DNA of 64,000 bases, from assembly GCA_965112155.1 (NCBI GenBank), contig OZ218098.1. One strand, 5' to 3'. The translations under genes were made by a program, and so were the position numbers. Below the pieces are notes generated by a model, which did not search any database, was not told the DNA's origin, and worked only from the letters and a program-made list of their open reading frames with translations. The stretch's first letter is position 1. Each line of letters starts with the position of its first letter. This DNA is from Podarcis liolepis. Taxonomy: Eukaryota. Shown piece after piece: positions 1,548-57,527 of this stretch.

Positions 1548-1813
1548 TGTTAAGTCGTGGGTTGACATAGCAGCCGGCACAGCGATTTCTTCAAGTAGCT
1601 CTTTATTATGGTAAGCTGGAATAGAACTGACTGCGAACAGCTCAGCCGGCCTGTATTTATAGGCAGCCGGCTGTCAACACTGTAACCACAACAGCCCAGA
1701 GTTCCCGCCTAAAATAACAGACGCGGACCTGAGTGAAAACTATCTACAGACCTGAGTGAAAACTATATACAGTATCCCCCTGTTGGCCCAGGGTGAAACT
1801 ACACTACATAACA
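1548..1813 (-). repeat. 3' LTR of the Gypsy element
   Basis: TGTTAAG...CATAACA, same sequence as 6202-6467; minus-strand TATAAAT (1655-1661) and AATAAA (1602-1607); internal duplication GACCTGAGTGAAAACTAT. Confidence 0.95.
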
Positions 1814-1826
1814 CCCCTCCCCACCG
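1814..1826 (-). promoter_or_regulatory. Polypurine tract
   Basis: Minus strand GGTGGGGAGGGG directly abutting the 3' LTR. Confidence 0.85.
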
Positions 1827-1926
1827 AGATAAGGCGTTAGTTACAATCGTAATGGTTTCCTTATATACAGCACTACGCGTAATGGTTCAATTAAGCACAA
1901 AAGCATATCGGTTACATTTCCCATAC

Positions 1927-4900
1927 TTAGACCAACAGTGATACCTGTCCAACAACATAGTCCTTTAAATAAGTTGGGCGCTTGGAAACTCTGCCAGACC
2001 GCCGGGGACTGGTAGCCAAGTCCGGAGGGCCACACAGTTCTCGCTGAGGCTGTGGTGCGACCCTAGGTGGCGTTGGAACCAACTCCCCTGGATCCGCTGC
2101 TGTGGGTGGAGCCTCCGCAAGTGGAGTGGTCTGAGTCTGTTCTGAAACGGCTTGGTTCGGCTCCACGCTGGCAGCTTGCGAGGGAGGTGTAGGTGGGGCC
2201 TCGCCATCTGTACGTGTCTCTTCTGGAGCCGCAAGCGCAGTTGGGGGCACCTCGGTAGTGTCCAAGTCCCCAACCCTGCGCCTAAGCTGGTCTATGTGCC
2301 GTCGCCACAAGCGTCCGTCTTCGAGTGCCACCTGGTACGAGCGAGGTCCAGTGACTCCCACTACTGTGGCTGGCACCCAAGGGATGTCCCCCACATAGTT
2401 CCGGGCAAAGACCTGGTTTCCTGGGACAAATGACCGTGGTGTGTTGGCACAGCCTGGGGGTTCAGCCACGGCAAAGTCTGGGTGTAGCCGGTCGAGCGGT
2501 GACCTGAGGCGGCGGCCCATAAGCAGTTCAGCCGGACTCCTCCCTGTGGCCGCATGAGGGGTGATGTGTTGTACGAACAAGTATTCGGCGACCCGCTCAT
2601 GCCAGTCTCCCCGGTCCAGGCGCGCCAGTGCCTCTTTTGTCGAGCGCACCATTCTTTCCGCTTGCCCGTTGCTGGATGGATGAAAGGGTGCCGTTAGGGC
2701 ATGGCGGATGCCCAGTCCCAAAAGATACCGCTCAAACGTGCCTGACGTGAACTGCGGTCCGTTGTCAGAGACAAGGACATCAGGACACCCATGCGTTGCA
2801 AACAGGCCTCGCAGCACCCGGATGACAGCTTCGGTAGTGGTGGAGGGCATCAGGGCGACCTCCAGCCATTTGGAATAGGCGTCCACCACTACCATAAAGG
2901 TCCGGCCGTGAAAGGGGCCAGCCAGATCGATGTGCACCCTCGACCAGGGTGTCTTTGGCGTCTCCCAGGTGTGTCTCTTAGCTGCCGGTGGTGCAGGCCT
3001 CGACTCCTGGCACGCTTGACAGGCGGACACCCAGGCAGTGATGGCATCGTCCATATTAGGCCACCAGACGTAACACCGAGCCAACGCCTTCATTTTGACA
3101 ATTCCCGGGTGGCCAACGTGCAGAGCCTCCAGGACGCGCTGACGGAGTCCCTGGGGAATCACGACACGGTCTCCCCACAGCAGGCAGCCGCGATGAGCTG
3201 AGAGTTCATGTTGTCTGGTTGCGAAGGGCTGGAACTCCGATGCAAAAGGCCCTTGTGGCCACCCCCTCCACACCCAGTTGAGCACCCGGCTGATGGTGCG
3301 ATCATGGGCAGATGCGGAGGCCACAGTGGCAGCCGATACAGGCGCTGCCGGAAGATCCTCAATCAGAAGGAGCGATGAAGCTGGAGCCGGGTCTTCCACA
3401 AATGCTGGAAGAGGGCAACAGCTGAGGGCGTCGGCATGGCCCATCGATTTCCCCGGGCGATGGATGAGCCGGTAGTGGTAGGCAGCCAGGAAAACAGTCC
3501 ATCGCAGCATGCGTGGTGAGAGGACCGGTGGAGTTGGACGATCACCGGCGAGGAGGCCCAGGAGTGGCTTGTGGTCAGTGATGAGGTCAAAAGTCCTGCC
3601 ATAGAGGTATTCATGGAACCTCTTCACTCCAGCCACAAGTGCCAATGCCTCCTTGTCGAGCTGGCTGTAATTCCGTTCCGTCGGAGATAGTGTCCTGGAA
3701 AAGTAGGCGAGCGGTGCTTCTCTTCCATCTGGAAAACGGTGACTAAGGACAGCACCGATGCCAAAAGGTGAGGCGTCGCAGGCAAGGACCAGCGGCCTGG
3801 ATTCACTGTACTGTACCAGCACACTGTCTGAAGAAAGGAGAGCCTTGACCGCGTTGAAGGCCGCCGTCTCCCGATGACCCCAGGCCCAAGGCGTCTTAGT
3901 GCTAAGGAGTCGGTGAAGAGGCTCAGCCACTGTGGCTTTGTGGGGCAGGAACATGTTATAAAAGTTCAGCAGCCGCAGGAATGCCTGCAACTCCGTTTTG
4001 TTCTTTGGGGCGGGGGCCTGCTGGATAGCGCGGATCTTGGATGTGGTTGGATGAAGACCGGAGGCATCGATAAGATAGCCCAGGAACTCTACCTGTGGAA
4101 CAGCGATCTGGCACTTGTCCCTCTTTACCTTGAGCCCGGCCTCCTGGAACCTGGTCAGCACGGCACGGAGGCGCTCGAACAGCTGCTGGTGTGAGTCTGC
4201 AGACACCAAGACGTCATCAAAATATGGTACCACGCCCGGAAGCCCTTGCAGGAGACGCTCCATAAGGCTTTGGAAGATGCCAGGAGCCACACTCACCCCG
4301 AACTGCAAGCGGCGGCAACGGAATGCCCCCCGGTGGGTGACGATCGTCTGGGCTTCAGCAGTGGCATCATTGACTGGCAGTTGTTGATAGGCTTGGGCAA
4401 GGTCCAGCTTAGCGAAGACCTTACCCTCACCCAGGGAATGCAGCAGGTGTTGGACAACAGGAACCGGGTAAGCGTGCTGCTGAAGTGCCTTGTTGATCGT
4501 GCACTTGTAGTCAGCGCAGATTCTCACCGACCCATCTGGCTTGACAGGCGTGATGATGGGGGTTTCCCACTTTGCGTGGTCAACCGGCTCCAAAACTCCT
4601 TGGGCGATCAGTTTGTCCAGTTGTTCGTCCACCTTAGCCTTGAGAGCAAAGGGAACCCGGCGTGGCTTTAGCTTGATGGGGGCGACTTGTGGATCAAGGC
4701 TAAAGGAGATGGGCGTACCTGTATATTGGCCCAAGGTGCCGTCAAAAACCTCGGCAAAGTCTTTGACCAGACCCTCAGTCTCTGCGTTAGAGATGCAGTT
4801 GATGCCGGTGACTTCCAGGCCGAGGGCATCAAACCAGTCTAGCCCTAGGAGGCTTGGCCGCTGACCTTCGACCACCACCAACCGGAGCAGGCCCGAAAAA

Positions 4901-6006
4901 TCCTTGAAGGCGATCCGGAACCGGCCAACGCCTACCACGGGAATGTCGTTTCCCTGGTAGTCTCTCAGGTGTACGCGGTGAGAGTCGAGTTGCCTTTTGG
5001 ACACTCTGGGTACCAGTCTTTTGATGGAGCTCCATGACACGATGGACAGGGCAGACCCGGTGTCGATCTCCATGTCACATGGAGCTCCTTCAATGAGCAC
5101 CGTGACGTTCAGCTTGCGTCGCGTAGGCGAGTCGGTTTGGCCAATCGTGGTTCCAGACGGGCAGCGGCAGTTGGTGAGAGCGAAACAACTTTCCTTGGCA
5201 GACTGGAGTGAAGACTTGGACTTGCGAGTCGATGAAGGGGGGGTGTCAGACGGAGCTGATCGGCAGACCTTAGCGATGTGGCCCCTTCTGGAACACTTCC
5301 TACAGATGGCGTCTCTGAATCGACACTTGGCACGGGAATGGTTGCCTCCGCAGCCAGCACATTCCGGTTGGCCCTTGGACTTCTGTTGGAACTTCCTGCG
5401 CTCCCGCTTTGTCTGGTGCACGTCATTGTCTTCACTGGAGGATGCCTCCTCACTGCTGGCCTCTTCATGATGCACCGGAACTGGCTCCCTAGCAAGACGC
5501 GGGCTGCTGGACTTGCGGATCTCCTGGGCGGAGCGTTCAGCAGCTTCTGAGGCCACAGCCTCCTCAATGGCTTTCTGTAGCGTGAGGTCTGGCTTGGCTA
5601 GGAGGCGCCGTTGCAGATGGATGTCCCGGACCCCGCAGACGATTCGATCCATCAGGGCATCGTCTAAGTCTCGGAACTCACAGTGCATTGCAGCCTCCCC
5701 CTCTGCCTGGTTCCGGTGGTAGAACGCATGGCGGGCAGCAATCTTGGACGGCTTTGGTGCGTAGTGGTTGCGGAGCTTCTCTTGGATCGTGTCCCATGGT
5801 GTTGCCTGGACTGCTTCAGGCGCAACCAACGCTCGGGCCGTCTCAAACACCTCAGGCCCACAGAGGCTGAGGAATAGGCCCCGCTTCCGCTCCTGTGATA
5901 CTTCTGTCAGCTCGTTGGCTTGGAGGTAGCAGTCGAACCGAGCGAGGTAGGAGTCCCATGATTCAGAGGCTGGCGCAAAAGGCGGTAGAGGCACAAGTGA
6001 AGCCAT
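1927..6006 (-). CDS. Gag-Pol polyprotein, 1359 aa (Gag with two zinc knuckles, protease, RT, RNase H, integrase)
   Basis: Knuckles CAGCGGNHSRAKC and CRKCSRRGHIAKVC; protease IDTGS; RT LQFGV and YFDD; RNase H LACDASPFGIG and TDHKPL; integrase HVGH...CQAC, HIDLAG, SDNGPQF, GQAER; C-terminal RRSGRVSKRPTYLKDYV. Confidence 0.96.
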   Translation of the reverse strand: MASLVPLPPFAPASESWDSYLARFDCYLQANELTEVSQERKRGLFLSLCGPEVFETARALVAPEAVQATPWDTIQEKLRNHYAPKPSKIAARHAFYHRNQAEGEAAMHCEFRDLDDALMDRIVCGVRDIHLQRRLLAKPDLTLQKAIEEAVASEAAERSAQEIRKSSSPRLAREPVPVHHEEASSEEASSSEDNDVHQTKRERRKFQQKSKGQPECAGCGGNHSRAKCRFRDAICRKCSRRGHIAKVCRSAPSDTPPSSTRKSKSSLQSAKESCFALTNCRCPSGTTIGQTDSPTRRKLNVTVLIEGAPCDMEIDTGSALSIVSWSSIKRLVPRVSKRQLDSHRVHLRDYQGNDIPVVGVGRFRIAFKDFSGLLRLVVVEGQRPSLLGLDWFDALGLEVTGINCISNAETEGLVKDFAEVFDGTLGQYTGTPISFSLDPQVAPIKLKPRRVPFALKAKVDEQLDKLIAQGVLEPVDHAKWETPIITPVKPDGSVRICADYKCTINKALQQHAYPVPVVQHLLHSLGEGKVFAKLDLAQAYQQLPVNDATAEAQTIVTHRGAFRCRRLQFGVSVAPGIFQSLMERLLQGLPGVVPYFDDVLVSADSHQQLFERLRAVLTRFQEAGLKVKRDKCQIAVPQVEFLGYLIDASGLHPTTSKIRAIQQAPAPKNKTELQAFLRLLNFYNMFLPHKATVAEPLHRLLSTKTPWAWGHRETAAFNAVKALLSSDSVLVQYSESRPLVLACDASPFGIGAVLSHRFPDGREAPLAYFSRTLSPTERNYSQLDKEALALVAGVKRFHEYLYGRTFDLITDHKPLLGLLAGDRPTPPVLSPRMLRWTVFLAAYHYRLIHRPGKSMGHADALSCCPLPAFVEDPAPASSLLLIEDLPAAPVSAATVASASAHDRTISRVLNWVWRGWPQGPFASEFQPFATRQHELSAHRGCLLWGDRVVIPQGLRQRVLEALHVGHPGIVKMKALARCYVWWPNMDDAITAWVSACQACQESRPAPPAAKRHTWETPKTPWSRVHIDLAGPFHGRTFMVVVDAYSKWLEVALMPSTTTEAVIRVLRGLFATHGCPDVLVSDNGPQFTSGTFERYLLGLGIRHALTAPFHPSSNGQAERMVRSTKEALARLDRGDWHERVAEYLFVQHITPHAATGRSPAELLMGRRLRSPLDRLHPDFAVAEPPGCANTPRSFVPGNQVFARNYVGDIPWVPATVVGVTGPRSYQVALEDGRLWRRHIDQLRRRVGDLDTTEVPPTALAAPEETRTDGEAPPTPPSQAASVEPNQAVSEQTQTTPLAEAPPTAADPGELVPTPPRVAPQPQRELCGPPDLATSPRRSGRVSKRPTYLKDYVVGQVSLLV

Positions 6007-6182
6007 GATTCCGATGCCGGCGTGAAGGGCGATGGATGGAACACAGTGCTCTAGCCAGAACAGTCAGCTCTGAACTGGTTCTGCCCAGTGATTTCGCTCA
6101 GTGATTTCGCTCTGTGATTCAGCTCAGTGATTCAGCTCAGTTCAGAGGCTGGCCGCATCTGGCTGTGCTCTGGTGTCCATCC

Positions 6183-6200
6183 ATCCCACCTTCGTCGCCA
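6183..6200 (-). promoter_or_regulatory. Primer-binding site, probably tRNA-Ser(GCT)
   Basis: Minus strand TGGCGACGAAGGTGGGAT, 1 nt from the LTR; complementary to ATCCCACCTTCGTCG+CCA, the 3' end of vertebrate tRNA-Ser(GCT) as I recall it. Confidence 0.85.
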
Positions 6201-6201
6201 G

Positions 6202-6467
6202 TGTTAAGTCGTGGGTTGACATAGCAGCCGGCACAGCGATTTCTTCAAGTAGCTCTTTATTATGGTAAGCTGGAATAGAACTGACTGCGAACAGCTCAGC
6301 CGGCCTGTATTTATAGGCAGCCGGCTGTCAACACTGTAACCACAACAGCCCAGAGTTCCCGCCTAAAATAACAGACGCGGACCTGAGTGAAAACTATCTA
6401 CAGACCTGAGTGAAAACTATATACAGTATCCCCCTGTTGGCCCAGGGTGAAACTACACTACATAACA
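6202..6467 (-). repeat. 5' LTR of the Gypsy element
   Basis: Matches 1548-1813 with no mismatch found by eye; followed on the minus strand by the PBS. Confidence 0.95.
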
Positions 6468-6623
6468 CCTGTGTTACACCCAGAACATAACACAGGCTAC
6501 CATACTAAAACACACAAATCCAAACAAAAACGGGTTGCTAAAAACTTTCTTGGATGTCCACAAAGAATAAACAAGCAAACACAAATATTCTTGCAACACT
6601 TCCAAACAGGATCTTGAGTTCTG

Positions 6624-8017: not shown

Positions 8018-8034
8018 GCTGCCTATATAGTGAC

Positions 8035-10400: not shown

Positions 10401-12485
10401 ATGCTGAAAAACTCTCTTACCTATAGGAATGATGGTGTGTGCATGTCTCTCTGAGCACACATCGCCCAGTTGGCCCCTGTTAGGACACTTGCATCCTAAT
10501 TTCCATGGAATTCTATATTTCTAATCAGAATTCTGGAGCAATCTGTTACTTTTAGGAAAACACAAAGCCACCCCAGGTTGTAGTTACTCTTGCCCTAAAC
10601 ATGTGCTGGTTTCAGGGTGACTGAACATACCTATTAAATTGTACGGTGCAATAGCTCTAGGAAGTTGGTTCCGTGTTGACCAAGTACAAAATGCTTTGGG
10701 GCAACATAAATCAGGGGAGTGCAGATTCTCCTTGTTTTAGCAAGCAGGTAGCTAATAGATTTGGTGTCATCTGAAAGCAGTCCCAGATGCTGATCCTGAG
10801 CCTTAAAAGAGATCTGGGCACCTGGGCACCTGCACTTTGTTTTAGGAAAAGGAGATAAAGATCTTATTTTTCAGCTCTGCAGAATGAATCCAGATCAGTT
10901 GTATCCCAGTTTTCTTGCTGTATGAGGCAGAACTTGTTTTTCTGGTGAAGCATGCCAGCCCTTTCTGCACTGGAAGTCCTACACCACTTTTTTGCAGCAA
11001 GCACCAGGATCTCCCTTCTCAAGCAGGCGTCTGAAAAGGTATGATTCAAAGTTGTGGCTTGTGGGTGAGTGGGTGGGTGGGTGAGTGGGTGGGTGTGTTG
11101 TGGCAAGTGGAGGTGGTAGGTTCACAGTGTGCCAGGAGCTTGAGACACCTGTTGTAGGATAATCATAAGCAAACTGGCTCTCCTGTGGATTCCCACTGAG
11201 ACATGATGACATGGAATATGCCTTTGTACTCTAGAGGACAATCAGAATTGTGGCAAGCGGTGCTTGCAAAGAGGAGGCACGGTGTGGCATGTGGCTGCAC
11301 TTTGCCAGCATTGGCATCTCCTCCTGAGTTCCAATGACTGAACATCCTGTGCACCGTCTGAGATTGTCTGCATCCAGCAAATCTGCAGATTGCCCATCCA
11401 TTCACATGAACTAAGCAGCATAGCTTCTGGGAATTGGGTGCACTGAACCAGCATACCCGAGATCCCTCTCCCCTGTTGTGGCAGCAGCAGCAGCCACAAC
11501 AGGGAGAGTCAAGTAAGCATGAATAACAAGGCATGACTGACTCATCGTTGTTTTGGTTTTTAAAGTTGGGGCACAAGATATCTGGAAAATAATGGATAAA
11601 TATATGTGCGCAAAATATTTTGAAGAGAACACCTGTTAATATTTTGCACAGTACGATGCTAAGCTGCAGATCCCATAATTCAGGACTGTAACTCAGGCAA
11701 CCGCTTTCCCCCTGTTAGTTTTCACCTTCGTTGGCACAGTTAAGGTTTTCACGTTGGCTTCTTTGGATCTTGTCTAAACTCTGCTTTCGCAGCGGTGACA
11801 TGTCTGCATGTTGGCTTGAAGAACTGTATTTATCTGCACTGAATATTTTTATTAATAAGCAAGCTACTCAAAACAGGGTTAAAGAGATGGCCCCATAACA
11901 TATAGGTTCCAGTGGACAATGTAAGGCTCATACAGGTCACCGGCCTGGCCTTCGCAAGCTGGATAGCTTGGGAATGCAGCTTGAAGGAAAGGGCAATAAG
12001 CCTAATTGAAAACTAAATTCTGGCCATGTAGATATGGTGTTATTTCACCTGCAGTTACATATCCAGGCATTTTGCAACACTTGCCCATTTGCTTTTGCTT
12101 TTTACATATTTAAAAGTTGAAACCTCTTATCTGAGTGATGGGTCTAGGGACAGGGAATTTTCCTCCCCAGTACAAAACTGTGGTTCTCCATTCATGGTAG
12201 AGACCAGCCTTCAGTGGGGGGAAAGAAGGGGGTTAGCAGCCACATCAAATCCATTGCCTAGCTAGATCCTGGACTGCAGGCTTGCCAACCTTGTTTTAGG
12301 CCAGGGATTACCAATGTGGTAACCTCCAGATGTTCATTGGCCATACTTGCTAGGAATGATGAGGATTGGGAGCCCAACATCTGGAGGACATTGTTCCATG
12401 TGGTTCCATTTCCATGGTACAGACTGAACATGATGTGACTGCTAGTAGTCTTGAAGGGCATCCATTCTGTTTCCAGCAGGGAGCT

Positions 12486-12639
12486 ATGACCCAGCCAAAG
12501 CTCAGCCTACTTCAGCTGCCCTTCCCCGATATCTGGAAATATGGCATGTTGGCACTGTCTGTTCTCCTGCTGGTGGTGGCATTAATCATTCTGACTTGCC
12601 AACTGAGCAGATGCCGGAAGTCCAGCAGATTATGGGAAG
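12486..12639 (+). CDS. Synaptotagmin-like gene, coding exon 1 (short N-terminus, TM helix, basic juxtamembrane segment)
   Basis: Acceptor ttctgtttcCAGCAG upstream; gctATG start; MTQPKLSLLQLPFPDIWKYG-MLALSVLLLVVALIILTCQL-SRCRKSSRLWE; donor AG|GTACGT, phase 1. Confidence 0.75.
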
Positions 12640-13530
12640 GTACGTTACAGAGAACATTGTGGATAAGAAGCATGTGTTCCTTTGGGTTGAACAATTATAT
12701 CAAGGACTAAGCCAAATTAGGCGGAAAATCACGATGACCTATCACAAAAAGACAAGGCTTGTTGGAGTGTTACTTGAATAAGCCTCGCTCTCCTGGGCTT
12801 GCTTCTTACTCTTGTCAGGAACACTTGCAGCCTAACTAGGAAAGAACTGAAGGCAACTGAAGAGGTGCAACTGCTCTTTAGAAGAGCTTCCCCATTCGTG
12901 TCAATGGAGGCATAGCTCTGCGAGCGGATCCCCTTTCCACATCCCCTCTCCTTCCATTAATCTGAATGGGGGGAATTGCAAGCATGGAAGCTGCACAGGT
13001 GCATGAAAACACAAAGAGGGCATTATATCTAGGTGCATGCTGACAAACCTATGTGAGCAGCTTTTCATTTTATTGTACAATACTCTAATGCAAAACTTGG
13101 TAGGAGGCATCATTTCCTTATGACCTCATTACTTTGTAATAAAAATTTTCTATGCGTTCAACCAAGCAGAGGCTGGTCCACCCAGGAGAATGGGGCACTG
13201 CCCACCAACCTTGGTCTGCTCTCAGCCAGCCCCCACCTACCTGCTTTCGTACCTCCAGTTCAGCCTCCTCCTTAGTCTCAGTGCTACATAACTCAGAAGG
13301 GAGGAGGGTGGGGATGAAACTGATATTAGTTGGCTCTGCCTATCATTCACCCTAGCTCTGCCTATTGCCCTTTCTGTCTTCTGCCCAACCAGGGCCAATG
13401 GATACCACCCTTTCATGCTCCGACCCATCAAGGATCCTTTTTGAAAAATATTTGTTCCTTCCCCCCTTATATTCATGTATGGACCTACTTGTCTCTGATG
13501 ATATGCACTCAGCTATGTTTGTTCTTGCAG

Positions 13531-13646
13531 AAAGAAAATTTGCCAATGAAGCCCGGAGAAGGATATCAGAAGAGCTTGCCTTCGAGGGGGAAAGATCGCA
13601 GACACCTCTTCTTGGCATTGCTCGAGAGTATATTCAAGAGGTCAAG
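13531..13646 (+). CDS. Synaptotagmin-like gene, coding exon 2 (linker)
   Basis: Acceptor tttgttcttgcag; phase 1 continues as (E)RKFANEARRRISEELAFEGERSQTPLLGIAREYIQEVK; donor either AAG|GCAAGT (end 13646) or GAG|GTCAAG (end 13640), both phase 0. Confidence 0.6.
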
Positions 13647-13914
13647 GCAAGTATAATAATCCCTGGTTGCAACCATATGTGGAATTACCTGCCTGGCATT
13701 GAGTTTGGGGTAAATTGGTTGTTTCAATTTCATTGTTCTGCATGGGACAATGACAATAAAGATATCTATCAGTGTGCAGCTGTGCATAGCAGTGACTGGC
13801 TGGTGTTGGTAACATCAGAACCCCACCCTTCAATCCCTGAAGTGTTTTACAGCTCTTTTAAATGGGATGTTGTTTTATGTTATTTTAATCAACTGAACCT
13901 ATATAATTAATTTA

Positions 13915-14850
13915 ACATCTATATGAAGCTATTGGGAGCACTCGTTAGGAGTCTTGGAGCAAGGTGTCACTGGTATGCTGATGACATACAGCTCTACTTC
14001 TCCATAACATTTGAATCAGGAGTGGTTATGCAAGCTCTGGACTGGTGTCCGAATGCAGTGCTGGATTAGTTGAGGGCCAATAAACTGTTTAAATCCTGGA
14101 AAAACGGAAGCTCTTTGAGAGGGTGATTTGCATGTCTGGGAGGTAGGCAAGTTACCCATTCTGGACAGGGTCGCACTTCCTCTGGAAGTGCAGATATGTA
14201 AGCTTGGGTACTCCTGGGTACATTCCTGTCGCTAGAAGCCGAAGTGTGGTTGGTCAGCTACAGCCTTTCCTGGACAGGAATAGCCTGACCACTGTAGTTC
14301 ATGCACTGGGGCTGGTTTACTGCAATGTGCTCTATGGATATCTGTTCTTTGGGAGCTCCAGCTGCTGCAGAAAGTGGTGGCCAGACTGCTGAAGGGGACA
14401 TCATTAGACTGCTAATGGTGATAACATCTGCAGTGGCTGCCCATCCACTATTGAGCCAGGTTCCAGGCCCTTGTATTAATTTATCTTAGGTTCAAGATAC
14501 CTTAGGGCTGCCTGAACACTTCTTTTCCTGCTTGATCACTGAAATCATCCATAGGTGCGTCACTGGTTGTCCCACAAGCTGATGGAACTCCTTGGACATC
14601 TACATGAAACTGAGCCTTTCATTGGCCCAGCCCTGTAGAATACAGATTCAGTAGGCATCTTCTGCATTAACCTTTAAACATTTGCCGAAGACTTTTCTAT
14701 GCTGCCAGGCCTATGCAGACAATTAAGAAAAACATTTTCTGTAATAGCTAGTGATCTGTGTTTTTTAATTGTGTATTTATAATTGTTGTAAACCACCATT
14801 TGATCGTTTTAAAATGGTGGTATACAAGTATTTTTTATGAATAAATAAAT
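13915..14850 (+). mobile_element. Decayed L2 LINE, RT to 3' end
   Basis: YMKLLGALVRSLGARCHWYADDIQLYF (YADD) then a frameshifted L2 C-terminus and an (AAAT)n tail. Confidence 0.75.
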
Positions 14851-14931
14851 ACGCCTATAACAGTTCAACCCAATGTTTGTTTACTCAGAAGTCAGTCACT
14901 TTTAAGAGCACACCTTTCTCATTTTGTCCAG

Positions 14932-15327
14932 ATCCAAAGAATCCAAAAGAAGCTCAAGAAGCTTGGGATCTGCTTTTCGCCACCAGCTTCAGAAAATAGC
15001 CATGAAATGGGCAACTTGAGTAGTGATGCAGTTGTTTCTGATGAGTATCCAGGCAAACTGAAGTTCTCGCTTCTCTACAACAAAGAGCAGCTGGAGCTCC
15101 TCTTGACCGTCACAGGAGCCCTGGGCCTACCCATCCAACAGTGCACCAACACCTTTGTCAAGGTTAGGCTGCTGAGCTGGGCCTCCTCCCAGTCTCCTGA
15201 TCTCCAGTATATTGTCCACGAATGGCAGACCCACGTTGCAAAGAACTCCAGCAGCCCAGCCTTTGGGGATCAGTTTACTTGTACCCTGCAGGAGGCCGAA
15301 CTGACAACAAGCAGCATCAAGTTACAG
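14932..15327 (+). CDS. Synaptotagmin-like gene, coding exon 3 (linker and C2A, first part)
   Basis: Acceptor ttttgtccag; GKLKFSLLYNKEQLELLLTVTGALGLP...FVKVRLL...QTHVAKNSSSPAFGDQF is a C2-domain pattern; donor CAG|GTGAGA; 396 nt. Confidence 0.88.
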
Positions 15328-15604
15328 GTGAGAGCGATAGTGGGTAGTCTTCTATAGTTTTACAGAAGGGCGCATTTAGAGAAGAGCTTCGCACATTCCT
15401 GGTTCAGTGTTTTAGCACTAAACTTCTGTTCCCACAAAAAAGTAGGCCAGATGATATGGGCTAGTGTGTCTCAGTGGCTGGTAATGGAGTCTTGGTGAGC
15501 CTGGTTGTTGCTTCAGACCAAGCTGTAGTGCAAGCAGGTGGGGGCTCGGGTGAATCAGTGGCAGGCGGCTTCAAGGGAGTGGATATGCCCCAGAATATTA
15601 AGGA

Positions 15605-15740
15605 GGTCAGCATGGATAGCTCAGTTGGTTAGAGCATGGTGCTAATAACTCCAAGGTTGCAGGTTCAATCCCAGTATGAGACAGCTGCATATTCCTGCCT
15701 TGCAGGGGGTTGGACTAGATAATCCTCAGGGTCCCTTCTC
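15605..15740 (+). mobile_element. Squam2/POM-like SINE (tRNA head, CR1-like tail)
   Basis: TAGCTCAGTTGGTTAGAGC...GGTTCAATCCC followed by GCAGGGGGTTGGACTAGAT..CCCTTC. Confidence 0.7.
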
Positions 15741-15959
15741 ATGCTTCTGTTATGCTGATTCCTCTCCTCGGTAGCCCAGAGACCTGCATCACCCAAGGTT
15801 CCTCTCTTCCATTCCTCTTCCCCCACATATTTTTTTAAATAGACTTTTAAAATATTTTCTAATAAGAATTTTTATTAATTTTTCAATTACAATCCAATAA
15901 TAGCCTCATTATAACAATACCAAATTATAATACAATTTCTAATACCATTCATTCAAATA

Positions 15960-16183
15960 CAGCGGTACCTCGGTTTAAGAACAGCCCTGTTTACAAACAA
16001 TTCGGTTTACAAACTCCGCAAAACCAGAAGTAATGTCCCGGTTTGCGAACTTTACTTTGGTCTAAGAACGGAATCTGAACGGTGGAAGGGCACCGGCGGC
16101 AGGAGGCTTCACTAGGGAAAGCGTGCCTTGGTTTAAGAACAAACGTCCGGAACGGATTAAGTTCGTAAACCAAGGTACCACTG
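15960..16183. mobile_element. Tc1/pogo-type MITE
   Basis: TIR CAG(C/T)GGTACCT(C/T)GGTTTA flanked by TA on both sides. Confidence 0.85.
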
Positions 16184-17207
16184 TACTAAATTATATAATT
16201 TAGGTGGCCCCCTGCATGCTAGATTTGATGGTTTGATTATTTTCTTTATTTCTGCGTTCCAAAATCTTATTAATTTCAATTACATTCCAGTCAAAATAAG
16301 AATCCCTTATACAACAACTGCAATATGAATAACTTCCATTTGTGCTGACACATTAGATGATTTATAGAACTACAAGTGAGGCACTCAAGCTATATCCTTG
16401 TTCTTCCTGGTTGGCAATTATTCTGTCTGTGGTGTTTCTTCCTGTCCTTGTGAAATGTTATGTCGGTTTCCCCCCGGTTGTTGCTGTTGCTGATTTTCAG
16501 TGTACATATAACATGAAAGACAGTTATAAGAAATATTTTTTAAAGGTGGAAAACACAACACAAATAGGAGGCATGTAACATAGGTTCGTCTGTATTTAAG
16601 GTGAGTAACAAAGTCCAGTCCCAAGAGAGAGATATGAAAATGGAGGTTGTTCTCGTATAAATAAAGTATACCGAAGTCAAGTGTAATTCCAAATCTCCCA
16701 GGCTTGTAATGAGGGTTGCCTTGCAAATGTTGGTCTTGCTGTATGTATGTGTAAGAAGGCAACGCCATATCATGTGGAAAGCACCTGGAAGTTCCAGCCC
16801 TTGTTTAAATCTCAAGTCACATCTACATGCAGTAAGGGGTGGTATGTGAGATTCTGAGCCATTTTCCCTTGAACTGCAATAGACAGTCGAGCTGCCAAAA
16901 TCATGTATAGGTCCTCCCCACACATTTGAGAGGTGCCATCTCTCCTAGCTGAGGGAAAGACACAGTTCCCAGCCAGGAGGAGGAGGAGGAGATACTGAAC
17001 TCTTCTGCCGGCTCCTGATTTCTCACTGCAAATGTCCCCCCCAAAAAGGCTCCAAAATGGAAGTGAGCCTAGCTGAAGAGGAGAAGGGGGGGCCTGAGGG
17101 CAGTTGCAAGGGGAAAGCAGTGGCTGCAGGTGGGGCTGAGCACTCCTCCATCCCCCTATGCCCTGCAATCTTTGTTATCTTGTGAAGTGTGGATTGGCTG
17201 GGGTATA

Positions 17208-17852
17208 CAGTGGTTCCTTGGTTCTCAAACTTAATCCGTTCTGGAAGTCCGTTCCAAAACCAAAGTGTTTGAAAACCAAGGCGCGCTTTCCCATAGAAAG
17301 TAATGCAAAATGGATTAATCCATTCCAGACTTTTAAAAACAACCCCTAAAACAGCAATTCAACATGAATTTTACTGTCTAACGAGACCATTGATCCATAA
17401 AATGAAAGAACTAATCAATGTACTATAAAATAAGACAGTATTGTAGATGATAAAAATTAACATTAATATTTTTTTCTTACCTGCACTGCTTATAGTCATT
17501 GTTTGGGTGGGGGGCTTTTATCCATTTCCACGGTCACACAATCAATCAATCAATCAATCAATCAGTAGCTGAACTGGGTTCCACACAGTCACAAAAACAA
17601 ATTAACCAAAAAAGCCTCAAAGACTAAAACGCAAAATAAATAGCAAAAACAAAAGCACCAAACGTAATCCGTTCCAGAAGTCCGTTTGACTTCCAAAATG
17701 TTCGAAAACAGCTTCTGATTGGTGCAGGCGCCCCAGAAACAATAGCCAACAGCTGCATCAGACGTCGGTTTCTGAAAAACGTTCGAAAACTGGAACACTT
17801 CCGGGTTTTTGGCGTTTGGGAACCAAGGCGTTTGAGAACCAAAGTACCATTG
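17208..17852. mobile_element. Tc1/pogo-type non-autonomous element, 645 bp
   Basis: TIR CAGTGGTTCCTTGGTTCTCAAAC / GTTTGAGAACCAAAGTACCATTG, TA flanks; internal (CAAT)n. Confidence 0.8.
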
Positions 17853-19132
17853 TAATTCATTGGGAATCTGATATAAGATACACGCACAGTGAAAGTGTAG
17901 ATCTTGCTTGCAGTACCAGCCACCATACAGAAGCAGAGAAAGGTCCAGATCTGCTGTATAAATAGTAGGCTTAGAAAACAACTCCGGATGAAGTTATACA
18001 CAGAAAAGAAAGCTCCAGCTTGGTAGGCTTTTCAGATACATACAGATGCGAAGCATCACCATTGCCCTAACACCAACTAACTAAGACTGAGACTTGCAAG
18101 CTGAAGTTTTATGACATTTCATACATGAAGCTGCTGTTCTCAAAATGAGGGAAGAAATTGCCTCAAAAAAACACAGGGCTATAGTCATGTGGTTTGAGGA
18201 GTGGGGTGGGGCAGAAAACCCTTTCAAAGCATGTAATGATATAATTTTAATTGTAAATAAAAAACTAGGTGCATCATAGATCTGAACTGCTGATCTTTCA
18301 GCTGCCTATGGAGCAATGCCTCCATCTTGTGGAAATCTCCAATAAGTGCATGTCTTTCCTGCAACCATGGGGTACATGCGGTTGCCCTCTGTTCCACTTT
18401 GTTCCATTCCTTTTGCTTGGCTTGACACATGGTGCCCCATTACTGCTATTTGTGCATTTCCTGTCAGCGTATGTTTCCTTTTTTCTCAATATATTGGGCT
18501 CTTAAGCCATTTTTTTAAAAAAAAAATCCTCCCCCAAGCTTCTCAGGCTGCCTGGTGGACTACATACCTACATTTTATCTTGCATGTAGGGGAAACTGTT
18601 TTTGTGAGCTACACAAAAAAGCAAATGGATAAAATTTTGACGTGTTTGTTGATGAGGTGAATGAAATAGTGCTTTTATCAACCCCAGTGTGAAAGGGAGG
18701 CGGCAACTGAACAAATCAGATAATGGGAAAAGCAACAGCATGGGACTTGTGTTATAAGGAATATGGTGGGGTGTCTGTTCAAATAAGTGTAAAATAATTA
18801 TGAAGGTTATTTCCCAGAAAATCAGTGTGGGGTAGTGGTTGTATTGTTGTATTATGGGTTCAAATCCAGGCCATAATTAATTAATGGAGTGCAAACTTTT
18901 GCACTTGGAATGAAAAGCAAAATATTCATGTGGAAATCACATTAATAACACCTGAACTGAGAAACAGCATCTAGGGTCAACTTACGTGATGCAGGAAAAT
19001 GTTCCTTAAGCAATTTGCGTGAGCAAAGTAAGGCCTGGAATTTCAACACCGTCTTACATATCTGAGTGGAAATTCCCCTGAGGTCTTATGACCTTTACAG
19101 GAAATACTGGGCTGTATTCAACTATGGTAACT

Positions 19133-19268
19133 CCGGCTTCCTCAACCTCGGCCCTCCAGATGTTTTTGGCCTACAACTCCCATGATCCCTAGCTAGCAGG
19201 ACCAGTGGTCAGGGATGATGGGAATTGTAGTCTCAAAACATCTGGAGGGCCGAGGTTGAGGAAGCCTG
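19133..19268. mobile_element. Palindromic hAT-like MITE
   Basis: Arms GGCTTCCTCAACCTCGGCCCTCCAGATGTTTT / AAAACATCTGGAGGGCCGAGGTTGAGGAAGCC. Confidence 0.8.
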
Positions 19269-19678
19269 AACTGTTTCTCAGACTACACTCGGTTAGTCAT
19301 GTCCACTAATTTTAATGGGTCTACTCTGAGTAAAGATTAATTGACTATGACCTATTGATTTGTCTTTTCAAACTTCATATACTATGGTGGTCTATGTGTA
19401 GAAATTTTCAGTTTAAATATTGCCTCACTTTTGAGCTCTTTGTGTGGCTTTAAGCAAACCACTATCTCTCTTCAGTCCACCATCCATAGGGATAATACCG
19501 TCGGCCTAATTTATAGGGCCATTAGTATATCATCATCATCATCATTTCTATGCATATATATATATGAATTGCAGGGATAAATGCATGTGAAGCATTTCAG
19601 GAATAAACACCATAAATCAATACAGATTATTACTGTTATTGTTATTGTTATTATTTTATGATGTCAATTATTCCACAG

Positions 19679-19798
19679 GTTAAACACTTTGACAGATATT
19701 CCCGGCATATGCCTCTGGGGGAAGTGAGAATAGCTCTGAATGCACTTAATACTTCCAGAAAGATCGAATTCTGTGAAGAATTGCAGAAGGCGACAAAG
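19679..19798 (+). CDS. Synaptotagmin-like gene, coding exon 4 (C2A end)
   Basis: VKHFDRYSRHMPLGEVRIAL resembles synaptotagmin VYDFDRFSKHDIIGE; ccacag acceptor, AAG|GTAGTG donor; 120 nt, phase 0/0. Confidence 0.9.
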
Positions 19799-20209
19799 GT
19801 AGTGGGGGATTTCTTCATTACTTTGGAAGAATTCTCAAAATCCTACATTAATTTTTTTATTACAAAATAAAAATTCCAGGTTATTGACACAGAAGGTGAG
19901 ATCAAGAGTAGTGCAAGCAGCCACTTGCTCATGGAACGGGGCATCTACTTCCCTTTCTCACCCCTTCAGCCTTCAATTCACCCACAAAATCTGCTCCCAA
20001 GTGTTGAGGGAACACTCCAGAAATGATTTTGAGGGTGCCTGGTGGGGAGGGGGGTTAGAGTGGGATGGAAAAGGAGAAATAGAAAGTCCCTTTGTGCAAG
20101 TGGATTTCTGTCACACAAGGAGACTGCCACAAAGAGAGATCACCCAGAAAATTCTCAAAAGTACGAAGACATGATTCGTGCATTATCAGAGCTGCAGAGT
20201 TCCTATTTA

Positions 20210-20352
20210 TAGATGGGATGCTTATAAATTTGCAGATGACATAAAGCTGGAAGGAACAGCTAACACCATAAAAGACAGAATTAAGATTTAATGTAATTTT
20301 GGCAAGCTGGAAAACCAAGCTGAAACCAACAAGATGAAATGTAAAAGACAAC
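20210..20352 (+). mobile_element. CR1-like RT fragment
   Basis: KFADDIKLEGTANT peptide, degraded downstream. Confidence 0.55.
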
Positions 20353-20878
20353 AGGCCCGAGGGATTTCAATATCCATGCTGAATCTTACCAAATCAAATA
20401 AACAAGAAATTAACTATTCTGTTGTAAGGAAAACAAGCAAAAGTACAACGACAAAAATTAAGCCAGTTTAACCAAACACCTGGGTAGAACAGAAACATGC
20501 ACACAATACATTCGAACAGATTAAACAACCAACGGCCTTAGTAATAGTTCCCACCCTGTTTTTCACTTAGAATAGCCCACTCTGTGCCAAGTAGACTTTC
20601 ACTCTGTGGCTTTTGAACAACTTACTACCTTTCCCCGCCATGAATTGTTGCCCACAAGCATCCACAGGAAGAAACTGCCACCCCTTGTCCATAGAAGCAA
20701 CAGAGTAAGAAACAGACACAAAATAAAAAGCGGGTGGCAATAAGCCATAGCTGATTTCTCTCTCCCCCATTCCAATCCAAAGGAAATTCCTGGGCCTCAA
20801 GGTTGGTAAGGCTGAAGGAGAATTGCAAGTGGATTTGCTGGCCTTCCCCTCCAGCGTTTCCCTTACATCTTTTCACAG

Positions 20879-20990
20879 GACACAGTTGGAGAAGTTCTTG
20901 TGTCACTGAAGTGTCTTCCGATCTCTCAGAAGATAGAGGTTGGGCTACTAAAAGTGAAAACTGCCTTCTTGTACAACAGTCCAGAGAAAC
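20879..20990 (+). CDS. Synaptotagmin-like gene, coding exon 5 (C2B start)
   Basis: DTVGEVLVSLKCLPISQKIEVGLLKVK resembles the LGDICFSLRYVP C2B start; tttcacag acceptor, C|GTAAAT donor, phase 1. Confidence 0.87.
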
Positions 20991-21623
20991 GTAAATATAT
21001 CTGTTTTCTTGTTCTTTCCCTGATGTTTGGGTGCTGCCTCCTTCGGACCTGCTGTCCCACCTGGAAAGCGGTGACTCACAAGAGAGGTGTATTCTTGAAT
21101 ATGTTGATAAAAACTGACCCAGAGATGTAGAGTCTTGGTATCATTAGAGCCAGATTAAAGTTCTACAGACACTGTAGCAGTAATAGTTGAAGGTGGAGAG
21201 TGTCTTGGGAAATGATCATTTTCTCCTCACCCCATGCATTAAAAGCATAAAGTCAATCTTGAAATCCCAGCTCACTATCTCTGTCCCCTTGAAGTTGTTT
21301 CAGGCTGTAGTGCAGGAAGTGGTCCAAAGATGTGACTGAAGAGAATGAATGTAGCATACTGCTGAGCACAAAAACTGAGATAGGTGGGCTGGAGAAATGA
21401 CCAAATAATAATAATTGAAGGGAGTGGGGGAACTATATAGGGACCTAGGACCCTCATCTTCTGATAAATGGAAGTCCAGCTTTGATCTCGGACACCAGCA
21501 GATACAAAACTACAAGGCTTTTCCATACAAAGATGAGGACTACAGGCTTGCTTTTTTTTTTGTTTTTTGTTTTACTGGAATATGAGTTCATGTTTATCTA
21601 AATTTCCAAAAGATCTCTAGAAC

Positions 21624-21810
21624 TAGGGCTACCATACATCTGGATTATCCTGGACATTACTGGGATTTCAAAGGTGGGGTGAATTTCCAAAAAGCAACAC
21701 TTTGCCCTTTTGGGTTTTCCTTTAAAAAAAGCTCAAGAATGTTGGGGTCTTCCTAAAAAAAGAGCTTTCGATGTATTCTGGTTTTTACTTTTTGAAATAT
21801 GGCAACCCTA
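21624..21810. mobile_element. hAT-like MITE
   Basis: TAGGGCTACCATA / TATGGCAACCCTA termini, flanking repeat CTAGAAC. Confidence 0.55.
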
Positions 21811-22206
21811 CTAGAACCCTTGTTTTATATTCTGTAATTGCTTTCTTGCGACCAAGTTAGAGATTAATATGCATATCCAGTTTGCTCCAGAGTATGTTGT
21901 TCTTAGTGCTTCTGAAGCCTTAGCTCATTATATCTCATTTGCAGTGTTAGATTCTTCCTCCTTTTGCCTCTCTTGTATGGCTGTGTCACAGACATTTGTA
22001 GTCTTCCCTCTCCCAGAGATAGAAGGTATTGCTGCTTCCAATAATCGTCAAATTCCTCCCTCTCAGCCTTAATGCAAGGAAAAGATAAATTATTAAATCT
22101 CTGCCCAGTTCAGAGGAATAGTTGTGATCTTGGGTCAATAACTCCAGAATTGACAGAGACTCTGGTGTTCATGTTGCCACTCCTTCTGATGCTTTTTCTG
22201 TTCCAG

Positions 22207-22508
22207 GTATATATGCAAGGATCGATGTCTTCTGCAATCTCCATAAGCAGAAGCATCAGAAATCCAAGCCCAAGACCCTCACATCAATTACTGTCTTCAA
22301 TGAAACATTCCTGTTCCACCTGCCTCAGCCTATAGTTTGGGATTGTGCTCTCCTCATTTCCATTTATGAGCTGCGTCCCAGAAGCAAGCAGCTTGTAGGA
22401 CAGGCTGTGCTGGGGAAACGAGGACCCAACGATATGAATGACCACTGGCATCGCATGGCACAGTCCATCCAGCACCCTGTAGCTAAGTGGCACCCTTTGC
22501 TCATTTAA
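22207..22508 (+). CDS. Synaptotagmin-like gene, coding exon 6 (C2B end and stop)
   Basis: Acceptor tttttctgttccag; (R)IYARIDVF...KQKHQKSKPK...VFNETFLF...LVGQAVLG...DHWHRMAQSIQHPVAKWHPLLI-TAA, with the synaptotagmin HW...P(I/V)AxWHxL terminus. Confidence 0.9.
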
Positions 22509-25314: not shown

Positions 25315-25316
<2 letters not shown>

Positions 25317-25357: not shown

Positions 25358-25358
<1 letters not shown>

Positions 25359-37992: not shown

Positions 37993-38052
37993 TCACACTT
38001 TCAGCTTCCTCTTTTGGTCGAAGTAGGCATCAAATCTTGAGAGTGCATAGTC
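37993..38052 (-). CDS. CHKA: CHKA exon 12, coding part with stop
   Basis: DYALSRFDAYFDQKRKLKV-TGA. Confidence 0.95.
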   Translation of the reverse strand, partial: DYALSRFDAYFDQKRKLKV

Positions 38053-38976
38053 CTAAGTGACGTAAAATATTATCGTTGAGTCATTTTGTATTCTGTCCTA
38101 ATGCCAGAGCAATTAAAGAATGCCAAACTATCACATTTCGCATGAAATACCAGAAACCTGCCTTGAATGCAGCTGTCACATATGTTAAATCTTTACTGAT
38201 ACAATATGGATGCAAAGGATAACTACATTTACATTTCCACTCAAAGTCTTGTCACTGAATATTACAGGCATATTTTTGAAAATAAGTCAAAGAGCAATAA
38301 TAAGATGGGAGAAATCAAACTGATGAGATAACTGAAGCAAGGCATCTGTAATGTCGATGGACAGCTCTTTGGGGTGTTAAGAGCAGCATCCATAAAGGCA
38401 GGGATGGTGAGCCTCTGGGTCCAGTGAATATTTTTATCTGGACAGTTAGGCCTTCCCTCCCCAGGCCTCCCCACCCCTCCAGACTGTGTCTGGAGAGACA
38501 CCTGTCTCCCTGGCCAGCTCAGAAATGCAGCAAATTCAGGAGACTTTAACATTTTTCTCTCTCCACTCGTGTTAAAACTAGAGCAGGCATCCCAAATCTG
38601 CAATTTACAGTGGGAAAAACCTACCACTAGAACAAATGGGAGCTCTCTCCCCCAATGCAAATTACAGGGGGGGAAGTATTATCTACCCACCCATCCCAAA
38701 TCCATTCATGTTTATGTGCATGCACACCTGTGCCCTCCCCACTTTTGCCTCTGGCAAATTATGCCTGAGGGAATGTGGCTCTTTTGTGGAGGAAGTTCTT
38801 GCCCCTTCATTAAGGTCTTGTATACACTACCTACTCCAGTATTGCACCAACAAAGATCAGTCCTGGCTGACTGGCAGTTAGACTGAATGATGTACAAACA
38901 TAGGCTTGGTAGGGTATAATTATCAGGTAGAGTAATCTATATTTCATGGACATAGTAATCACACCGCTGAGCATTA

Positions 38977-39171
<195 letters not shown>

Positions 39172-39289
39172 CTAGGATTTGTTACATCAACAGCATGCTC
39201 ATTTCAACCATACAGAATACATAAGAAATGCAACTTCTCAAGGAGGACAACTCCGGATGCGTTCTCACTCTGCCTCCGGAGTGGTTTGT

Positions 39290-39820
39290 TTATTGTAGAA
39301 AACTTATGCTCTACCCTTCCAGTACATATGCACTACTCAAGGCAGCTTCTAACAGCTAAAACCACAGTCATAAAAATAAAGTAAAAGCATGAAAAACAGA
39401 AATCAGGTTCATAGAATCGTAGAATGGTAAGAGTTGGAAGGGATCCTAAGGGTCACCTATACCAACCCCCTGCAATGCAGGAATCTGCCATGCAGGTTCA
39501 GCAGATAAACGTTCTAAAAGTGAGGGTCCGTCCCCTAAAACTCTCATGCCCAGCAAGACAAATGCTTACCAGGACAGGGAACCTTTAACCAGTCATTGAA
39601 AAAGCAGGATGTCCAAATAGATCTCATGGGGAAAGGTACTCTAAAATCTGGGTGCAGTCACTGAGAAAGCCCTCATGCCAACCAATGTTACCTCAGCCTC
39701 TCCACAGAAGGGCCTCTTAGGGCACAGGAAGGCTGGAATGAGAGAAAATGCCCCCTAAGGTATCCTAGAACCATCATTTAGGGCTTTCAAGATCAACAAC
39801 AATACTTTGAATTGCTGTTT
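39290..39820 (-). mobile_element. Old L2 fragment with a CR1-tailed insert at about 39409-39485
   Basis: Degenerate L2 3' motifs; CATAGAATCGTAGAAT..GAGTTGGAAGGGATC insert. Confidence 0.5.
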
Positions 39821-40174
39821 AGAACTAAAAATGTCCCTGAGTGAATGCTTTTTGTGATTTTAACCATTGCACCCTGAACCCTCTGCTTCAGTTCTAGGAA
39901 ATGGGAGTAGCTGTTCTCAAAGCAGGCAGCAAATGAGCTCCACCAGTCAGGACAAATGATTATGGATAATATTCCATATGGGTCCCCACTTGTCCTACTT
40001 TAAGGATATATAGCTTCTAGATGTTCATTGCTTAAAATTAACCATTTCAGAGCACAGTCTAGATTAAACACTGCTAAGATTTCTTAAGGCAGCATGAACA
40101 ATTTACATTTTCACTGAAAGCAAAATTCAGCAACAGGATCACATACTGTAAATCCAGAATGAAGACAGAAGTTA

Positions 40175-40315
<141 letters not shown>

Positions 40316-41389
40316 TCAAGTCATTTGGGCAAATAGGTATTTTCAGCTATTAAATCAGTGGCACGGTTCCAAAGAAGTTTTAATACCTGCAGTCACATTT
40401 GTTTTTAGCTAAGTATTGGTCCTAGTAGAGTTTTGTATTCCAGTTTTGCTTTTAACAAATTTCCATGAGGCCAAACAAGTTGCTCAGTCTTTAAGATTGT
40501 GGGATGCTCATCCCAGAGAGGCTCACCTGGTGCCTTTGTTACATTATTTTTAGGCACCAAGCAAAAGCACACCTTTTCTCCCAGGCCTTTGGCTAAATAA
40601 ACAATCTATGGCTTTTATGCTGGAGTGGTTATTGTTTTCGTTTCTTACTAAGTTATGTATTTTTGTGTTATACTGTAAACCAACCTGTGATCCTTGAAGG
40701 GTGGTATGGAAATTTAATTACCATATTTTTTTGTGTATAACCTGACCCCATGTGTAAGACAACCCCTATTTTTGGGATCCCAAAAGTAAGAAATTCATCA
40801 CTAATTTTTTTCCATAAAAAAGGTCATCGTATATGGAAAAATATGGTAATAATAATAATCTAAATGTGATTTAGTGTTATAGTGGCAAAACAATTACTAA
40901 CTGGCCATGTATAAAATGGGACATGAGTACTGAAGTTAACAAAAGATATCCTGTATGTAATAAACATTGCCTCCAACTCTAGATGCTCTTTAAGCAAACA
41001 CTGAAATTCAGAAACTTTATTACAGAGGACTTGGGATTTTGGGACTACTGTGGGGCAACATGAACGGCTGCTACTGAGGTCATGTTATAAAATTTTACAA
41101 TGTCGAAAAAATTGAGTATGACAAGTTGTAAAGTTAAAGCGGAAGATACAGCAAATTATGTTTGCCTATCAGTGAAATGGACTTTGGCTACATAATAAGA
41201 CTTCGCCCTTGCATGCCCCTCAAAACCTGCTTGGGGTTGGGTGGCACTATAGAGCAGACTTTGAGGGACCTGCAAGCGGCAGGAGTGGAAGGGGAAATCC
41301 AGATGTACGATTAGAAATCTGCTTGTGCAACATTGGCTTCACTGGCTACAATCACCCACAGACTAAGCTCTGAAATGAAATCCCTTTCA

Positions 41390-41605
<216 letters not shown>

Positions 41606-42834: not shown

Positions 42835-42990
<156 letters not shown>

Positions 42991-43301
42991 TCAACTTAGG
43001 TTCCATTTCTTGTGATGGGATATTGGCAACTTGCTGTACAACAGCACTGTCCATGCCGTATTATTTTATCACAGTATACAATATAAGCAGGGGCTATTGT
43101 ACAAAGTTGATTTACTTTAATACAGCCCAGATTTTTCTTCACTGTAACCTGCAAGTAATGAAGATACAACATGGTTTGCATCACTACTTAGCCTGTCTCA
43201 CTCCAGCCTTAAGACCTTTCCCCAGTAAAAACCAGTTCTAGATTCTAAACAGAATATTCCTTCAATTATGATATGGTATTTATCTCAAACTAATGACTTT
43301 A

Positions 43302-43487
<186 letters not shown>

Positions 43488-44445: not shown

Positions 44446-44652
<207 letters not shown>

Positions 44653-45053: not shown

Positions 45054-45209
<156 letters not shown>

Positions 45210-45567: not shown

Positions 45568-45696
<129 letters not shown>

Positions 45697-57341: not shown

Positions 57342-57527
<186 letters not shown>

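Follow-up and report, generated by a model that had tools for sequence, protein, structure and literature searches.

The stretch of DNA analysed here is a window of 64,000 nucleotides on contig OZ218098.1 of the lizard Podarcis liolepis (assembly GCA_965112155.1). The gene order at this locus is RNH1, SYT19 and CHKA, and its central member is an intact synaptotagmin-like gene that we identify as almost certainly the Syt19 orthologue. The observation of such a gene is not due to chance, since homologues are found from sharks to lizards and RNA shows introns 1 and 2 removed. Six coding exons on the plus strand join in frame into 1200 nucleotides (399 residues) with one terminal stop, and the phases of introns 1 to 5 are 1, 0, 0, 0 and 1. 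Exon 1 (12480..12639; coding part 12486-12639 from the ATG at 12486) encodes a short luminal N-terminus, a transmembrane helix and Cys38/Cys43, and a likely splice acceptor AG lies at 12478-12479. Exon 2 (13531..13646) encodes linker and has a GC donor at its 3' end. The end of the predicted linker helix and most of C2A, in which loop 1 lacks both aspartates, lie in exon 3 (14932..15327), and the end of C2A with D227, the sole retained aspartate, lies in exon 4 (19679..19798). C2B starts in exon 5 (20879..20990) with K273, K280, K287 and K289; the remainder, with the basic groove (Y302, R304, K313, K315, H316, K318), WHPL and the stop, is encoded by exon 6 (22207..22508).

The acceptors of exons 2 to 6 consist of a pyrimidine tract and AG; four donors are GT and one is GC. 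Intron 2 (13647-14931) is therefore of the GC-AG type, and its non-canonical donor (AAG/gcaagt) is needed for the 1200 nucleotides. The original prediction, made from the letters alone, had joined six exons in phase into a chain of this length; this holds given the GC donor of intron 2, which is seen in RNA, and the four motifs that it quoted were all found where expected. An in-frame GT donor located 6 nucleotides 5' of the GC donor of exon 2 would give an alternative of 397 residues, a form that we rejected because the joints observed in RNA were made at the GC donor. In the database models of Podarcis muralis (P0294) and Zootoca (P0289), intron 2 is spliced differently and AHLSHFVQ replaces EVK; these are likely to be mis-predictions caused by the GC donor. 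The RefSeq model of Podarcis raffonei (P0001, "synaptotagmin-5-like") differs from the window protein at 11 of 399 positions.

Transcription was assessed by mapping four sequencing runs on 12000-15600, the part of the window that contains exons 1 to 3 only. In run X6, which comes from another organism and whose status as RNA is a guess, one contig of 877 nucleotides joins exons 1-2 and exons 2-3. In run X19, which is RNA on record and of which about 12% was read, two reads with two different starts cross the exon 2-3 joint. In both runs this joint appears as 13644>14930, which is the GC-AG intron shifted by two ambiguous letters. Run X1 yielded a contig of 1002 nucleotides, 373 of which lie on exon 3; the length of the rest would fit exons 4 to 6 plus about 97 nucleotides. 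Run X5 contributed a single piece of 211 nucleotides inside exon 3, without a joint. A separate search with exon 3 listed no holder recorded as RNA. Other pieces of run X6 cover intron sequence, so this run must also contain DNA, pre-mRNA or repeats. The assembly contigs behind the nine unnamed full-length homologues mentioned below are 1.4-2.5 kb long, which suggests spliced mRNA, and expressed sequence tags for syt19 of chicken, Xenopus and zebrafish are listed in the available part of Craxton (PMC2823689). A seventh, 5' exon probably exists, because 204 nucleotides of the X6 contig before 12481 do not map to 12000-12480 and an AG acceptor is present at 12478-12479. The upstream stretch 6100-12470 contains six donor-like sites that are candidate donors for it. 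An MTQ start occurs at the same place in the Anolis, Rhineura, Tiliqua, Hemicordylus and Emydura models, which suggests that the upstream exon is non-coding. Separately, the intronic repeat fragments at 13722-13766 and 13200-13236 show very high depth from unrelated transcripts in the RNA runs.

The identity of the gene rests on two comparisons: the window protein and the Anolis protein P0005, which matches Craxton's syt19, agree at 267 of 404 aligned positions (66%), and the window protein belongs to a clade with support of 100/100 whose members range from sharks to lizards. Craxton's Anolis syt19 corresponds to the last 309 residues of P0005, as judged by eye with three anchors and the length checked, and three tested anchors of X. 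tropicalis P0084 also match Craxton's sequence. Identity to the window protein falls to 55% in a turtle, 46% in quail, 42% in X. tropicalis (P0084) and 35% in a shark-like protein; it is 25-30% for seven other synaptotagmins, and the best named BLASTP match other than Syt19 is Syt17-like (30%). The IQ-TREE analysis of C2AB used 68 rows and 274 columns, chosen from the 142 FastTree rows after removal of P0205 and other long branches. All 14 of 14 Syt19 rows formed the clade, with a stem of 1.25, against 54 outgroup rows, and the row nearest to the window protein was P0005 (73% over 267 columns). In the 142-row FastTree the Syt19 clade comprised 37 rows at 0.999; the long-branch jellyfish protein P0205 stood beside it, and the split of Syt17 plus Syt19 from the rest reached only 0.542. 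The sister group of Syt19 is an open fork in IQ-TREE.

The outgroup labels for Syt17, 7, 2, 6, 12 and 13 rest on one or two named members each. The clade called X is closest to Podarcis exons that we take to be Syt4/11-like, and the clade called Syt4/11/13 consists of a Syt13 row plus unnamed rows. With these labels, Syt19 lies outside the Syt1/2, 6/9, 7, 12, 17 and Syt13-containing groups, and no Syt8, 14, 15, 16 or 18 row was identified among the 68. The original prediction could match the protein to none of mammalian SYT1-17, and this agrees with the C2AB tree, in which it nests in no nameable mammalian-type clade; the confident grouping with a known mammalian synaptotagmin that had been set as its refutation did not appear. 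Two further identities were examined by eye and rejected. Syt18 was rejected because the Anolis syt18 in Craxton's alignment differs while Anolis syt19 matches, and Syt8 because in Craxton's set both Anolis and chicken possess a Syt8 of their own, marked by an RRP motif and a C-terminal tail. Thus the suggestion of a syt18/syt19-type non-mammalian paralogue was right as to Syt19 and wrong as to Syt18.

The gene group has been known and named since 2010 but is functionally an orphan. In the available part of Craxton 2010 (PMC2823689), Syt19 is confined to vertebrates, is lacking in mouse and human, and is called "completely uncharacterised". The group as given there comprised six species and had neither the Anolis N-terminus nor a transcript; the present locus adds the complete coding sequence, RNA support and the GC-AG intron. 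The partial Anolis syt19 begins at the same exon boundary as Podarcis exon 3. No functional study of Syt19 was found in the literature searched, which took in few subscription papers, and the same literature did not describe the gene order RNH1-SYT19-CHKA, the stepwise loss of ligands, the GC-AG intron or the apparent repeated losses of the gene. None of the best 120 of 143 homologues is called Syt19; they carry at least eleven different names (SYT1, 2, 5, 6, 7, 9, 11, 12, 13, A or B). Anyone who relies on those names when studying expression or gene families in fish, frogs, birds or reptiles may take a paralogue that is blind to Ca2+ for a Ca2+ sensor.

The protein has the anatomy of a synaptotagmin. 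After the short luminal segment, a transmembrane helix spans approximately residues 19-38 with a hydropathy peak of 2.86 and is also a helix in the structural model; the cysteines Cys38 and Cys43 lie next to the membrane, as the original prediction had described. An N-out topology, lack of cleavage and palmitoylation of Cys38/Cys43 are presumed. The AlphaFold model of P0001, which is 97% identical, contains a helix at 15-67 that includes the transmembrane segment, a helix at 81-105 and two C2 domains, with a mean predicted local distance difference test score of 80.4. Its top Foldseek matches are C2AB of Syt1 (E 2e-21) and Syt7 (E 1e-20), and Pfam finds two C2 stretches in P0001 (E 2e-17). For residue counts across species, 101 of the 120 homologue rows were aligned, and 19 fused, partial or isoform rows were left out; the same alignment, with P0001 as query, was the input to the structural model. 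W394 and H395 are invariant (101/101), and we take the C-terminal WHxL to be a mark of the synaptotagmin family. An intron in C2B loop 1 lies at the same place in two other Podarcis loci, presumably SYT11 and SYT4, where the remaining C2B is likewise one exon. The helix predicted in the linker at residues 81-105 (about 13620-14975) is split by intron 2. It seems to be kept from sharks to lizards as K-I/V-Q-x-x-Q-x-E-L-x-K-L followed by S-P, and it is a possible site of oligomerisation or partner binding.

Syt1 (PDB 2R83, 5CCH) shares the order transmembrane helix, linker, C2A and C2B, the C2 fold, the basic C2B strand and the WHxL end with Syt19 (phmmer E 3e-21). However, the two proteins are only about 25% identical, 10 residues are inserted after the third strand of Syt19 C2A, and one of the ten Syt1 aspartates is retained. 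Ligands were mapped by phmmer alignment to Syt1 (chain index + 137), with the ten aspartates under what we take to be their full numbering. In Podarcis C2A, where loop 1 is three residues shorter than that of Syt1, D172 corresponds to Q160 or a gap, D178 to N163, D230 to H225, D232 to D227 and D238 to M233. In C2B, D303 corresponds to N295, D309 to R300, D363 to E354, D365 to R356 and D371 to Q361. The prediction of about one aspartate in C2A and none in C2B is therefore accurate: D227 is the only one left, and E354 stands at D363. With one Asp and one Glu of ten, the protein does not have the ligand set of a Ca2+ sensor. Ca2+-sensor synaptotagmins have ten acidic Ca2+ ligands according to the available part of Craxton (PMC2823689), and six of Syt1's ten aspartates appear in the available part of PMC12318101.

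The C2A ligands erode stepwise among vertebrates, from four of five in sharks and lungfish to three in frogs and one in amniotes. Aspartates at D172/D178/D230/D232/D238 are present in 0/5/6/6/6 of 6 cartilaginous fishes, in 2/2/2/2/0 of 2 for lungfish plus coelacanth, in 3/3/2/3/0 of 3 for gar plus bowfin, in 4/7/13/13/0 of 13 teleosts and in 0/32/26/33/0 of 33 amphibians. The counts are 0/0/0/14/0 of 14 in lizards, 0/0/0/26/0 of 26 in birds, with Glu at the second position in 20, and 0/4/0/0/0 of 4 in turtles. The D232 equivalent is kept in 97/101 orthologues. In C2B, Asp occurs at D309 in 37 and at D365 in 15 of the 101, and Glu at D363 in 95. Parsimony with other synaptotagmins as outgroup suggests an ancestral Syt19 C2A with five aspartates. 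The order of loss can be reconstructed only tentatively: sharks would have lost the first ligand, bony fishes the fifth, frogs both, and amniotes all but one. Comparing species along this graded loss could show which aspartates are important, and zebrafish, Xenopus and chicken are tractable models.

The primary SNARE interface of Syt1 is formed by R281, E295, Y338 and R398/R399 (available part of PMC12318101). The Podarcis residues at R281, E295, Y338, R398 and R399 are K273, K287, V329, Q388 and H389, so this interface is not found; other residues stand at the docking positions, and at one of them the charge is reversed (E295>K). Across the 101 orthologues, E295>K occurs in 100, Y338>V/I in 101 and R399>Q in 100. 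The polybasic face of Syt1 comprises K313, K321, R322, K325 and K327 (available part of PMC7498268). In Syt19, K313>R is found in 99/101, K or R stands at R322 in 100/101 and at K327 in 100/101, and Y311 is kept in 98/101. The basic C2B groove is conserved in more than 90% of orthologues. In the Podarcis strand, R304, K313, K315 and K318 are kept, with H at 312 and 316 and Q at 317, and the isoelectric point of C2B is 9.7.

We consider that Syt19 is probably a Ca2+-independent, lipid-binding tether, brake or adaptor, a reading drawn from sequence and from analogy with Syt11. The loops are not expected to chelate Ca2+ because the acidic cluster is gone. What the protein retains without the ligands is its fold, its basic groove and its WHPL end, a combination that would place it in the class of basic synaptotagmins that do not bind Ca2+. 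Syt19 would be a single-pass protein of a vesicle or endomembrane whose basic C2B groove may grip acidic phospholipids without Ca2+, and instead of triggering fusion it may serve as a sorting adaptor, a tether or a brake. Syt4/Syt11 and Syt13 are similarly non-Ca2+-binding with a basic C2B, and Syt11, in the available part of PMC12819558, is a basic protein that needs no Ca2+ to bind acidic lipids and has an inhibitory effect on early exo- and endocytosis. However, Syt4/Syt11 and Syt19 are separate clades, and the likeness is a functional analogy rather than membership. The original prediction of a probably Ca2+-independent and functional gene is supported so far as the lost ligands and the splicing of introns 1 and 2 in RNA can speak to it.

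Several observations weigh against this interpretation. Syt19 did not group with the Syt4/11-like clade in IQ-TREE, and no binding or cell assay of Syt19 was found in print. The polybasic face carries K325>H in 92/101, K321>H in 71/101 and K326>Q in 100/101, so that the patch may be weaker or pH-dependent. The isoelectric point of the whole C2AB (9.3) is close to those of Syt2 (9.1) and Syt7 (9.5), a charge so ordinary for the family that basicity is no specific pointer to a role like that of Syt11. Exon depth in the roughly 12% of X19 that was read is low (1-2.4, first mates on the minus strand). Finally, the comparison of X6 with the window indicates moderate constraint only: there are 27 differences in 673 exon nucleotides against 78 in 1217 nucleotides of intron pieces, the orthology of the latter being uncertain, and among 14 of the 27 exon differences seven codons are replaced and six are silent.

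It is possible, though unlikely, that Syt19 is chiefly a protein-binding scaffold that docks on a specific partner (an adaptor, a non-neuronal SNARE or itself) through the WHPL end and the conserved surface of C2B, lipid binding being secondary. The near-invariance of non-canonical surface residues (K287 in 100/101, Q317 in 100, Q389 in 100 and H316 in 92), the DKYSR loop, every position of which is conserved to at least 90% although the ligands are gone, and the predicted linker helix would all be explained by such a role. On the other hand, the conserved basic face maps to the lipid-binding region of Syt1.

Gene decay is a less probable explanation. A dispensable gene, still transcribed and with little function left in lizards, would account for the apparent absence from several lineages, the partial alligator model described below, the low read depth and the ratio of replacement to silent codons in the partial list. 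Nevertheless, full-length or near-full models exist in many lizard families, the frame is intact in other lacertids, and splicing is correct, including that of the GC-AG intron. C2B is identical to Anolis at 106/137 positions and to a sawshark at 60/136, compared with 35/82 and 14/80 in the linker. Retained low-affinity Ca2+ sensing through C2A is slightly less credible still. Sharks and rays keep D230/D232/D238 in 6/6 and D178 in 5/6, lungfish and coelacanth keep four in 2/2, amphibians mostly keep three, and D232 is almost universal. Yet lizards retain D232 only (14/14), with the shortened loop 1 and, in Podarcis, a C2B without Asp, so this could apply to fishes but hardly to Podarcis. That the gene is a fast-evolving orthologue of mammalian SYT8, 12, 13 or 17 is very improbable: the long stem could hide its origin, as the Syt17-like BLASTP match and the Syt8, 14, 15, 16 and 18 rows not identified in the tree would allow, but the clade stands outside the nameable groups, and the available part of Craxton (PMC2823689) has a separate Syt8 in Anolis and chicken, a separate Syt18 in Anolis, and Syt19 listed as absent in mouse and human.

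A full-length homologue search gave 143 proteins, of which the best 120 are listed, 111 of them named and nine unnamed; each row is one cluster whose other members are mostly unseen. Among these 120 are cartilaginous fishes, gar, bowfin, teleosts, coelacanth, lungfish, caecilians and frogs, and, of the amniotes, turtles, lizards, an amphisbaenian and birds. The birds among the matches listed are palaeognaths, Galloanserae (fowl, waterfowl), Charadriiformes (shorebirds), Procellariiformes (petrels) and one loon. The group thereby reaches cartilaginous fishes, gar, coelacanth, lungfish and turtles, beyond the six species in the available part of Craxton's report. No mammal, snake, passerine or crocodilian is present among the 111 named rows of the best 120, and no snake appeared in any of three homologue searches. 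The absence of Syt19 from mammals, snakes, passerines and crocodilians is suggestive only, because nine rows are unnamed, 23 matches lie beyond the best 120 and the rows are clusters. An alligator model from a profile search (P0132) has 234 residues and lacks part of C2A and the last exon; it is either a decaying gene or a poor prediction. It is conceivable, though we hold it with some doubt, that Syt19 was lost several times (in mammals, snakes, songbirds and perhaps crocodilians) after stepwise loss of ligands from a Ca2+-binding gnathostome ancestor. If this is true, the Syt19 proteins of different vertebrates would form a natural series in which the conversion of a Ca2+ sensor into a Ca2+-independent trafficking protein could be tested.

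The exons of RNH1 (ribonuclease inhibitor) lie just upstream of the window at 77,986,343-77,994,290 of the contig (G000:C1; L001:343-8310), on the plus strand as SYT19. A green turtle model (P0015) fuses a ribonuclease inhibitor to Syt19; it is probably an annotation artefact that records adjacency, and it suggests the same RNH1-Syt19 neighbourhood in the turtle. CHKA, whose exons found so far span 37993..57480 on the minus strand, lies tail to tail with SYT19. The original prediction had named it as the neighbour, and it is indeed located on the 3' side, its stop about 15.5 kb past that of SYT19. The only V-ATPase a-subunit gene on the contig, at 83.84-83.86 Mb (G000:C1) and about 5.8 Mb from CHKA, is likely to be TCIRG1. 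In human, RNH1 (11p15.5) and CHKA (11q13) are far apart, and mammalian Syt19 was possibly lost at a breakpoint between them. In the available part of 10.64898/2025.12.22.696110, stickleback SYT19 adjoins myosin genes, CALB2A and NLRC5, so the RNH1-CHKA neighbourhood is not universal. No paper on RNH1/CHKA synteny, or on synaptotagmin loss in snakes or passerines, was found in the literature searched. In the flanks of SYT19 (1-1900, 6100-12450 and 22520-38000), none of 115 stop-free frames of at least 62 codons matched Pfam. Between RNH1 and SYT19, a long terminal repeat retrotransposon of the Ty3/Gypsy type occupies 1548..6469 on the minus strand. It has a stop-free frame of 1378 codons (6063-1930, minus strand) with matches to protease, reverse transcriptase, RNase H and integrase, and its two 268-nucleotide terminal repeats are identical, which points to a recent insertion.

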